The notes below the pieces were generated by a model. The model was not told the origin of the DNA. It saw only the letters and a list, made by a program, of their open reading frames with translations, and did no database searches. This document shows, in pieces, positions 19,029 to 22,038 of a stretch of DNA of 64,000 nucleotides (position 1 is the stretch's first letter; each line of letters starts with the position of its first letter). Source of the stretch: Escherichia coli (GTDB taxonomy: Bacteria; Pseudomonadota; Gammaproteobacteria; Enterobacterales; Enterobacteriaceae); assembly GCF_024502345.1 (NCBI RefSeq), contig NZ_JALDNN010000001.1; one strand, 5' to 3'. The position numbers were made by a program, and so were the translations under genes.

Positions 19029-20637
19029 TCAGTTATCACGACGCACCGCCATCGAAACCGTAAAAATGCCCCACTCATCAATCCGTTGAGTGCATTTATC
19101 AAATCCGGCATTACGCACGAGCGAATCCATCTCCCCTTGCGAACGCACGCGCATTACCCACGGTTTACCATCTTTATGACTGGTTAACACCCCGGCAATC
19201 AGCTCCAGTTGTGGGTGCCACGGCTGCCCGGTGTAGAGGAGAATGCCGCCCGGTTCGATGGCATTGGCAAGACCTGCGAGTGAGTTTTTTACCTGCTCAT
19301 TTTCGGGAAAAAGCTCATACAGTCCAGAGACAATTGCCAGCGTAGGCCGCGGAGTTAACGCGCTGAGTTCCTCCGGGTTAAACGCATCGCCCTGTTCAAA
19401 ACGCACCCGCCCAGACATTCCCCGTTGGGCAATCATCTCTTGCCCCTGTGCAACATTTAACTCGCTGTAATCACGTAACAAAATATCGCTTACGGCAGGC
19501 TCGTTTGCCAGCGCATCCAGTACATAGCGCCCATGCCCTGCGGCAATGTCAACCACGCGGACGGCTAAACCTTTGGCGTGGAGATCGGCAACGGCTTGTT
19601 TAATCTGTATTTGTAAATGGGTTTTGCGCTGGCGAATACCGCGCCAGCCAACACTGTTCAGGTAGATTTTGTCGATTAAGCGCCCGAATGCGTTACTACC
19701 TTGCGGTTGATTTTGATAGACATAATCCAGCGAACTGCCTGAATCAAAGCCGGTGCTCATTCCGAGATGCAGGCCCGCAGAGTGCGTCCCGAACAATTTC
19801 ATCGCCTTTCGCATAAAGCGATACGCTAAATCAACCGGCGATAATGGCACGGGTCCACCAGAAAGTAGCCGCCATCGATCCGCTGATGGTCCTGTGCAGT
19901 CTTCATGCTGATAGTCAAATTTTTGCGATTTGTTAGCATATAAACGACTAATAAAGCTTTGCATTTTTTCAAATGCCAGCGCCCTGTTCTCTTCACCCAA
20001 CGTGTCGTGATAAAAGCCTGGCAGCAGATGCAGCTCTTTCAGAGGGCTACGTAATCTCTGATAAAAATCAATCTGCGGTTGGCGATGCACCACATAGTCA
20101 TCGCCTGATATCAGAAGTTGCGTGGGGAGCGTAATCGCCGCCGCATCTCTAATAATACGTTCAGACGTTTTGTAGAGATCGAACAAGATATTAACGGCAA
20201 TCGCCCGTGTGATCAGCGGATCATTATTGAAACTCGCCACCCGTTGCCGATCGTGGGTCAAATAGCGTCCTTTCACATAGGAATTAATAAAAAACAGACC
20301 ACGCAGACGATGCCATAACGTCAGCGCAGGACGTGCCAGCGGCACATACAATTTAACCTTAAAGGCCGGAGAAGCCAGCACCAGCCCGCGAATTGCAGGT
20401 GCATAATCATGAATCCATGTGGCAACCAGCACTGCGCCGACGCTTTGCGCGATCACTACCACCTCTTCCAGTCCAACCTGGCTGTCGCTGGCAGCAAAAC
20501 GGACAAATTCATCGACATCCCGCACTGAACGCGCAAGAGATGGGCTATAACCACGCGGCCCCGAACTTTTTCCATGCCCTCGGGCATCCCAGGCATAAAA
20601 AGCAGTATCTGGCATCGCCAGTTCATCAACGAGATGT
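19029..20637 (-). pseudogene. ynbC: Alpha/beta-hydrolase and methyltransferase protein YnbC, 5'-truncated at the IS boundary
   Basis: 535 native codons against a remembered 585; the first 29 codons of the listed 565-aa ORF are read from IS sequence. Confidence 0.55.
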
Positions 20638-21694
20638 GGCTTTGTTGAATAAATCGAACTTTTGCTGAGTTGAAGGATCAGATCACGTATCTTCCCGACA
20701 ACGCAGACCGTTCCGTGGCAAAGCAAAAGTTCAAAATCACCAACTGGCCCACCTACAATAAAGCCCTCATCAACCGTGGCTCCATAACTTTCTGGCTGGA
20801 TGATGAAGCTATTCAGGCCTGGTATGAGTCAGCAACACCTTCTTCACGAGGCAGACCTCAGCGCTATTCTGACCTTGCCATCACGACTGTGCTGGTCATT
20901 AAACGCGTATTCAGGCTGACCCTGCGCGCTGCGCAGGGCTTTATTGATTCCATTTTTTCTCTGATGAACGTTCCGCTACGCTGCCCGGATTACAGCTGTG
21001 TCAGCAGGCGGGCAAAGTCGGTTAATGTCAGTTTCAAAACGCCCACCCGGGGTGAAATCGCACACCTGGTAATTGATTCCACCGGGCTGAAGGTCTTCGG
21101 TGAAGGCGAGTGGAAAGTCAAAAAGCATGGCCAGGAACGCCGCCGTATCTGGCGTAAGCTGCATCTCGCCGTTGACAGTAAAACACATGAAATCATCTGC
21201 GCTGACCTGTCGCTGAACAACGTTACGGACTCAGAGGCCTTCCCCGGGTTAATCCGGCAAACCCACCGGAAAATCAGGTCAGCCGCCGCCGATGGCGCTT
21301 ACGATACCCGGCTATGTCACGATGAACTGCGGCGTAAGAAAATCAGCGCGCTTATCCCTCCCCGAAAAGGTGCGGGTTACTGGCCCGGTGAATATGCAGA
21401 CCGTAACCGTGCAGTGGCTAATCAGCGAATGACCGGGAGTAATGCGCGGTGGAAATGGACAACAGATTACAACCGTCGCTCGATAGCGGAAACGGCGATG
21501 TACCGGGTAAAACAGCTGTTCGGGGGTTCACTGACACTGCGTGACTACGATGGTCAGGTTGCAGAGGCTATGGCCCTGGTACGAGCGCTGAACAAAATGA
21601 CGAAAGCAGGTATGCCTGAAAGCGTGCGTATTGCCTGAAAACACAACCCGCTACGGGGGAGACTTACCCGAAATCTGATTTATTCAACAAAGCC
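20638..21694 (+). mobile_element. IS903-group (IS5 family) insertion sequence, 1057 bp
   Basis: Perfect 18-bp terminal inverted repeats GGCTTTGTTGAATAAATC at 20638..20655 and 21677..21694; a single transposase ORF; the flanking 9-mers ACGAGATGT and GAGTGATGC do not match, so there is no target-site duplication. Confidence 0.9.
20670..21638 (+). CDS. IS903-type DDE transposase
   Basis: Translation ...WPTYNKALINRGSITFWLDDEAIQAWYESATPSSRGRPQRYSDLAITTVLVIKRVFRLTLRAAQGF... matches the remembered IS903/IS102 transposase; the true start may be internal to the listed ORF. Confidence 0.85.
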   Translation: MKDQITYLPDNADRSVAKQKFKITNWPTYNKALINRGSITFWLDDEAIQAWYESATPSSRGRPQRYSDLAITTVLVIKRVFRLTLRAAQGFIDSIFSLMNVPLRCPDYSCVSRRAKSVNVSFKTPTRGEIAHLVIDSTGLKVFGEGEWKVKKHGQERRRIWRKLHLAVDSKTHEIICADLSLNNVTDSEAFPGLIRQTHRKIRSAAADGAYDTRLCHDELRRKKISALIPPRKGAGYWPGEYADRNRAVANQRMTGSNARWKWTTDYNRRSIAETAMYRVKQLFGGSLTLRDYDGQVAEAMALVRALNKMTKAGMPESVRIA

Positions 21695-22038
21695 GAGTGA
21701 TGCGTTACTTTCCGGTAAAAATAAAAAGGTAAATAGAGCGCAATATCGGAAATAACATCGCCAGTTTCATTCAAAATCGCCCCCAGACGTGTTTGCTGAT
21801 TGCACTCACGCGCCAACATGCCATCCAGCGCATTGAGCGCCATACGGATAAAAAGCACGATGGGCAATAGCAAAAAGAGGATGGGTTGTGCCACCAACAC
21901 CAACAGCAATCCGGTAAAAAGAGAAAGCGCCAGTGCCGTAAGAGTGATGTGATTCGCTGTAACGTGGTGCTTATAAAGCCAAAACATCGTCGGCCTTAAC
22001 AGCGACTGAAAGAGCGGTTTTATCTGGTAGAGCGTCAT
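21695..22038 (-). pseudogene. ynbA: CDP-alcohol phosphatidyltransferase YnbA, N-terminal ~114 codons only, 3' end replaced by the IS
   Basis: MTLYQIKPLFQSLLRPTMFWLYKHH... membrane protein; the ORF runs into the IS right end, against a remembered 201-aa full length. Confidence 0.5.

Follow-up and report, generated by a model that had tools for sequence, protein, structure and literature searches.

In Escherichia coli assembly GCF_024502345.1, a 64,000-nucleotide stretch of contig NZ_JALDNN010000001.1 (hereafter the window) carries an intact copy of the insertion sequence (IS) IS903B in place of 1,321 bp of the ynb operon, with ynbC and ynbA truncated on its two sides, the whole of ynbB missing and no target-site duplication. 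Close relatives of the strain share the junction with ynbC and differ in the position of the other breakpoint, and the arrangement was probably made by a copy of the element already resident in the operon, through intramolecular, cointegrate-type transposition. The element is well known, and so is the phenomenon; the case is an ordinary, textbook IS-associated deletion. As one more natural example of classical IS903 behaviour it matters little beyond strain typing, for which the junction sequences give a lineage marker; the mildly interesting additions are limited to nested endpoints within one clone and a reused target site in ynbB.

The element and its junctions

The flanks of the element were aligned to four references with an intact ynbA-ynbB-ynbC arrangement, namely the loci L006, L001 and L002, from three unrelated strains, and E. 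coli K-12 MG1655. The element and the sequences that border it are as follows.

20638..21694, plus strand: intact IS903B-type insertion sequence (IS5 family, IS903 group), 1,057 bp, named by its identity to annotated IS903B copies
20638..20655, plus strand: left terminal inverted repeat, GGCTTTGTTGAATAAATC, 18 bp
21677..21694, minus strand: right terminal inverted repeat, the exact 18-bp reverse complement of GGCTTTGTTGAATAAATC
20715..21638, plus strand: transposase gene, GTG start at 20715, 307 aa, start as in RefSeq IS903B annotations
20629..20637, unstranded: left flanking 9-mer, ACGAGATGT, native ynbC sequence (L006 4671..4679; window 20637 is K-12 1,479,287)
21695..21703, unstranded: right flanking 9-mer, GAGTGATGC, native ynbA sequence (L006 6001..6009; window 21695 is K-12 1,477,965)

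In all four references the two flanks are collinear and like-oriented, with 1,321 bp between them; in none are they adjacent, as they would be on either side of a simple insertion with a 9-bp duplication. The missing interval (L006 4680..6000; K-12 1,477,966-1,479,286) comprises the first 149 nt of ynbC (49 codons and 2 nt), the 15 bp that separate ynbC from ynbB, ynbB in full (897 nt) and the last 261 nt of ynbA, the ynbA and ynbB genes overlapping by one base. What is kept of ynbA corresponds to 345 reference nt, present as 344 nt in the window. These measurements agree with an earlier reading of the window from its sequence alone (the sequence-only reading), which had described a ynbC without about 50 N-terminal codons, a ynbA reduced to its first ~114 codons, and a ynbB wholly gone, around a 1057-bp element at 20638..21694 with perfect 18-bp terminal inverted repeats and differing 9-mers at its edges.

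The left junction reads CAACGAGATGTGGCTTTGTTG. With ACGAGATGT on one side and GAGTGATGC on the other, identical at five of nine positions, the window copy has no 9-bp target-site duplication, and a duplication that has since decayed was rejected because both 9-mers are native at their own positions in the intact references. As a control on the method, the same procedure recovered perfect 9-bp duplications at four simple insertions of IS903-group elements.

Copy on plasmid Rts1: 9-bp duplication CGTTGTGTC
Copy in L001: 9-bp duplication ATAAATAGG
Copy in L002, within ynbC: 9-bp duplication TAATCTCTG
Copy in L003, within ynbB: 9-bp duplication TATCCAGCC

At the L004 element, which adjoins a deletion, the procedure found no duplication, and the window copy likewise has none because of the 1,321-bp deletion at its side. 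Neither junction of the window occurs in 5,426 complete RefSeq E. coli genomes, where the best flank identity is ~99.3 %, and exact scans of JGI metagenome contigs returned no match to the left junction and none to the right; the right junction, on the ynbA side, was found in no other record searched.

By nucleotide identity the element is an isoform of IS903B, since it is 97.07 % identical (31 mismatches in a direct nucleotide comparison) to the prototype in Rts1 (RefSeq NC_003905.1), 92.6 % identical to IS102 of pSC101 and 100 % identical over its full 1,057 bp to copies in many E. coli chromosomes that are annotated 'IS5-like element IS903B family transposase'. Copies of the same 100 % identity are also carried by plasmids of Citrobacter, Salmonella and E. 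coli; in the wider family, Klebsiella plasmids predominate. By the ISfinder convention, isoforms share ~95 % identity or more. The transposase matches the IS5-family model NF033579 (transpos_IS5_2) over profile positions 1-289 of 289 with 357.6 bits against a cut-off of 140; its longest open reading frame (ORF) starts at a TTG at 20670 and encodes 322 aa, and the coding sequence annotated in L001 is 924 bp. The IS903-group assignment of the sequence-only reading is upheld by the model score, the prototype identity and the identical annotated copies. Within the window, the GGCTTTGTTGAATAAATC 18-mer was found at the two element ends and at one unrelated place with 3 mismatches, and three or more matches arose in none of 100 shuffles (shuffle mean 0.08 matches); comparison of the window with itself found no second IS copy and no other repeated DNA. 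The prototype of IS903B sits inside Tn2680 on Rts1 (PMC12670165). IS903-like sequence is present in 1,993 of the 5,426 complete E. coli genomes. To our knowledge, IS903 is not in the published IS complement of K-12.

Nested endpoints in close relatives

Members of the clone were located by means of a lineage-specific PaaF-PaaX fusion ORF (window 23998..24555) and the exact HrpA sequence of the window. The closest relative is the isolate assembly GCA_050022275.1, in which the region lies on two contigs, L020 and L007. The former opens with 76 nt of the left end of the IS, continues through the identical ynbC junction and differs from the window by 1 mismatch in 17,750 bp. The latter matches the window at 100 % over 12.8 kb of right flank, retains a further 337 bases of ynbA and ynbB and then meets the IS at the same right end and with the same orientation; the endpoint falls within ynbB at L006 5663, which corresponds to a gap of 983 bp. 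Two metagenome contigs, L008 and L009, also have a right flank 100 % identical to that of the window, with the IS end at L006 5810, so that their gap is 1,130 bp provided that the left junction is that of the window. A Logan contig, L021, has the same HrpA, differs by 1 mismatch in 7,811 bp and carries an uninterrupted ynbB-ynbC-ynbD, i.e. an empty site on the same haplotype. The clone therefore has at least three nested right endpoints, at L006 5663, 5810 and 6001, giving gaps of 983, 1,130 and 1,321 bp, of which the window has the largest, and among these close relatives a fixed left junction, shared by the window and L020, goes with a variable right endpoint. The 341-aa ORF of YnbD was tried and rejected as a tag for the lineage, being present in 115 blocks of the collection; the loci retrieved with it match the left flank of the window at 98.1-98.7 % identity.

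Origin of the deletion

A junction that stays fixed while the opposite endpoint varies in a nested series is classical for IS-mediated adjacent deletion and for that reason supports such an origin, as do the intact IS with perfect ends, the missing duplication where simple insertions of the same IS group have one, native flanks that are collinear in four references, and the empty site of L021 on the same haplotype. The sequence-only reading had proposed an IS-mediated adjacent deletion in place of a simple insertion, and the shared ynbC junction and differing right endpoints of the relatives lend it support. In the work of Weinert et al. 1983, as cited in PMC11708052 and PMC12670165, IS903 forms both cointegrates and adjacent deletions. 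In such an event, the two IS ends would attack a 9-bp target close by in the chromosome that carries them, and the DNA between the right end of the IS and the target would be lost as a circle. The IS itself would stay where it was: ynbC sequence (ACGAGATGT) would still border it on the left, and ynbA sequence (GAGTGATGC) would now border it on the right; the expected product of intramolecular attack is the old flank, the IS, the new target 9-mer and the distal DNA, with no target-site duplication. An ancestral simple insertion in ynbC is predicted to have had the far-side junction CAACAAAGCCACGAGATGTTGTAGACG. As to the order of events, the IS of this clone may have been first in ynbC and later have attacked the ynbB hot spot described below, or it may have been first at that hot spot, have made a leftward deletion into ynbC and then have made the rightward deletions.

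Several observations weigh against this origin. At the sequence level, the end product is identical to that of recombination between two direct IS copies. The junctions of L020 and L007 lie on separate contigs broken inside the IS, where we infer a single IS, and the structure of L008 and L009 is known from the right side alone. Those two contigs share the 5810 endpoint yet differ in a 4,421-bp paaZ-paaE deletion, a character conflict that suggests homoplasy, recombination or chimerism of a metagenome contig. No simple-insertion progenitor at the left junction was found in the 5,426 complete genomes, by product look-up or in the JGI metagenomes; in particular, an exact look-up of the 62-aa product predicted for the ancestral simple ynbC insertion returned nothing on record.

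Homologous recombination would reach the same product in two steps and is a possible explanation, although a less likely one. In addition to a first IS903B in ynbC (target ACGAGATGT), a second, direct copy would have entered ynbA (target GAGTGATGC), and RecA-dependent exchange between the 1-kb repeats would then have removed one copy along with the intervening DNA, leaving as each flank one half of a different duplication. Such a product is indistinguishable from an adjacent deletion at the sequence level, and exchange between IS copies is a frequent cause of missing duplications (PMC11708052). Moreover, IS903-type elements do enter the operon from outside, as is evident from simple insertions that arose independently, each with its duplication, in ynbC (L002) and in ynbB (L003) and from occupation of the ynbB 9-mer CTATGGCGG in unrelated backgrounds and in both orientations. 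However, three endpoints in one clone would need three extra direct-orientation insertions within ~340 bp, each of them followed by recombination, and no two-copy intermediate was found in any collection searched.

A further rival is a one-step event, in which the IS would have inserted into a double-strand break during an unrelated deletion and the duplication would never have been made. That hypothesis is already in the literature, where it was put forward to explain an IS903-subgroup element of E. coli C (PMC11708052), and the same region holds three IS-free deletions with 2-5 bp junction overlaps, by which breakage and illegitimate joining do occur there; but the shared left junction and differing right ones imply that at least two of the three deletions took place with the IS already present, which makes the one-step event very improbable. 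Hardly to be credited is an assembly artefact, whereby contigs ending in different IS903B copies would have been misjoined through a collapsed repeat. The right junction of the window is indeed in no other record and the short-read assemblies of the relatives break inside the IS, but the flanks are collinear, like-oriented neighbours with 1.3 kb between them in every reference, an independent assembly (GCA_050022275.1) shares the left junction and has a right one of analogous form, and the window is continuous over 64 kb.

The ynbB target site

The endpoint of L007 falls at a 9-mer that reads CTATGGCGG in gene orientation, at about codon 27 of ynbB (K-12 1,478,295-1,478,303). The same site bears IS903-type ends in unrelated E. 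coli backgrounds (L022, L024, L025 and L026), the flanks of which are 94-97 % identical to those of L007; the IS of L022 (8070..8096) is oriented as in L007 and those of L024 (8070..8096), L025 and L026 are in the opposite orientation. With at least two independent insertions at CTATGGCGG, the site appears, from these sequences, to be a hot spot for site-specific insertion. Neither this hot spot nor the primary junction is explained by WTTYA-N9-TRAAW, the target motif published for IS903 (PMC2577343, Table 1), because four target sites match it at 4-6 of 10 positions (5/10 at CTATGGCGG and 6/10 at the L006 5810 site) and 26 % of operon positions score at least 5/10. The operon as a whole was considered as an IS903 hot spot and rejected for want of enrichment: given 4,712 chromosomal IS903-like places in the 5,426 genomes and assuming a ~5 Mb chromosome, chance alone would put ~3 insertions into the ~3.3 kb of ynbABC, and 3 were seen (L002, L003 and L004).

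A stronger claim may tentatively be assembled from the site and the nested endpoints together, namely that the IS903B copy is actively eroding the operon, having made at least three successively larger deletions in one clone (no more than 1 single-nucleotide difference in ~30 kb of flanks), and that CTATGGCGG is truly a site-specific hot spot for IS903, at which unrelated lineages have independently acquired insertions in either orientation; for this combination the balance tips slightly to the doubtful side. If true, the hot spot would point to determinants of target choice beyond the published motif.

State of the ynb genes

The remnants and chimeric parts of the operon in the window are as follows.

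19029..20637, minus strand: ynbC remnant, first 149 nt missing
20638..20726, minus strand: IS-derived opening of the ynbC chimeric ORF, 89 nt (29 codons and 2 nt), TTG start at 20726
21695..22038, minus strand: ynbA remnant, 344 nt, frameshifted
21664..21694, minus strand: IS-derived tail of the ynbA chimeric ORF, 31 nt including the stop codon
17723..19039, minus strand: ynbD, in-frame TAG at codon 60 (18860..18862)

The sequence-only reading had also noted two chimeric ORFs, one with 29 IS codons ahead of ynbC and one in which the ynbA remnant ends within the IS, and both are present as described. The first spans 19029..20726 on the minus strand; its ynbC part retains positions 22-238 of 239 of the Hydrolase_4 model and the whole Methyltransf_20 domain, and has lost the N-terminal segment with the FHRGHEHSGR stretch. 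The second, 21664..22038 on the minus strand, terminates 31 nt inside the IS. Since a promoter and terminator scan found no outward promoter-like site on the strand that could drive the ynbC remnant, both are treated as mechanical ORFs. Exact-product look-ups of the chimeric ORFs of the window (124 aa, 565 aa and 528 aa) returned nothing on record.

The ynbA remnant has a 1-bp deletion, that of the codon-104 G (between window positions 21727 and 21728), which puts the last ~10 codons before the junction out of frame. It is common to the window, L007, L008 and L009 and must therefore predate the deletion endpoint of the window. In relatives that keep more of ynbA, the shifted frame stops at a TAA just past the window breakpoint, giving a 115-aa product, and the deletion in the window merely exchanged this stop for one 31 nt inside the IS. 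In ynbD, codon 60 is changed from TGG to TAG by a G-to-A substitution (gene strand) at 18861, which is the only difference between the window and L020 (17,750 bp) or L021 (7,811 bp compared); as it is absent from both, the nonsense codon is private to the window strain. Judging by these lesions, the operon was evidently already decaying, through the ynbA frameshift and the ynbD nonsense codon, and all four genes are inactive, with ynbA frameshifted and truncated, ynbB gone, ynbC truncated at its 5' end and ynbD interrupted by the nonsense codon. In this strain the non-essential ynbABCD operon, which encodes a putative pathway for phospholipids or glycolipids, is thus fully inactivated by four independent lesions. 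YnbB is a paralogue of CdsA, and its loss is expected to be tolerated.

Comparison with known systems

The IS903B of Rts1 has, like the window copy, 1,057 bp, identical 18-bp terminal repeats and a single DDE transposase gene; it differs by 31 substitutions and in being bounded by the 9-bp duplication CGTTGTGTC, where the window copy has none. The IS903 adjacent deletions of Weinert, Schaus and Grindley 1983, as they are cited in PMC11708052 and PMC12670165, resemble the present one in their intact IS, deletion from one IS end, absence of a duplication and variable endpoints, but according to those citations they were plasmid-based laboratory events with demonstrated transposase dependence, whereas the deletion in the window is natural and chromosomal, with a mechanism read from end products. 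IS150-adjacent deletions of the E. coli long-term evolution experiment (PMC11708052) likewise show insertion first, then a growing deletion, with no duplications, although IS150 belongs to the IS3 family and its deletions come with a time series, whereas we infer in what order the three states of the present clone arose. On a small scale, the endpoints nested among the near-identical relatives are a natural counterpart to such stepwise IS-adjacent deletions of laboratory evolution. Strain YZ22PE244 (L004) also has an IS903-group element in the same operon, without a duplication (CCCCAAAAA on one side, TATCTGAAC on the other) and with neighbouring genes lost, from the 5' end of ynbB through to paaY; unlike in the window, the element is another member of the IS903 group (87.7 % identity), the breakpoints are others, the deletion is much larger and the strain is unrelated.

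Other lesions in the region

Independent IS-associated damage to the same operon is found in other strains. In YZ22PE244 the IS903-group element without duplication lies at L004 3949..5004, beside the loss from ynbB through to paaY; in SCPM-O-B-9504 (L005 9103..9928) an IS1 truncates ynbB beside foreign DNA; and in GCA_002968215.1 (L017 853..4030) IS3- and IS1-type genes lie around ynbA, ynbB and ynbC.

Three IS-free deletions in the window also disable the neighbouring tynA-paa genes. The largest, of 6,433 bp, runs from within paaF to within paaX, removes paaG, paaH, paaI, paaJ and paaK, and leaves the in-frame PaaF'-'PaaX fusion ORF (window 23998..24555, 185 aa) with a junction at 24463/24464 that has no IS and an overlap of only 2 bp; the exact product is also present in GCA_050022275.1, four ENA metagenome contigs and one Logan contig, and is a useful clone marker. 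At window 25193..25195, a deletion of 4,421 bp relative to K-12, with a 3-bp overlap, has removed the 5' end of paaZ, paaA-D and the 5' end of paaE, and at 25940..25944 one of 1,584 bp relative to K-12, with a 5-bp overlap, has removed the DNA from the 5' end of tynA to the 3' end of paaZ. The 4,421-bp deletion is present in L008 and absent from L009 and L011, although the latter two both carry the PaaF-PaaX fusion. Taken together, the ynb lesions and the tynA-paa deletions suggest relaxed selection on the whole region.

Finally, two loci of K-12 are absent from the window, ydbD, which in K-12 lies between pdxI and ynbA (site at 22039..22336), and ydbA/ynbG, which in K-12 lies between paaY and pdxI (site at 23198..23425). 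Both are also absent from many other strains, e.g. those of L006 and L002, and their absence looks like ordinary presence/absence variation.

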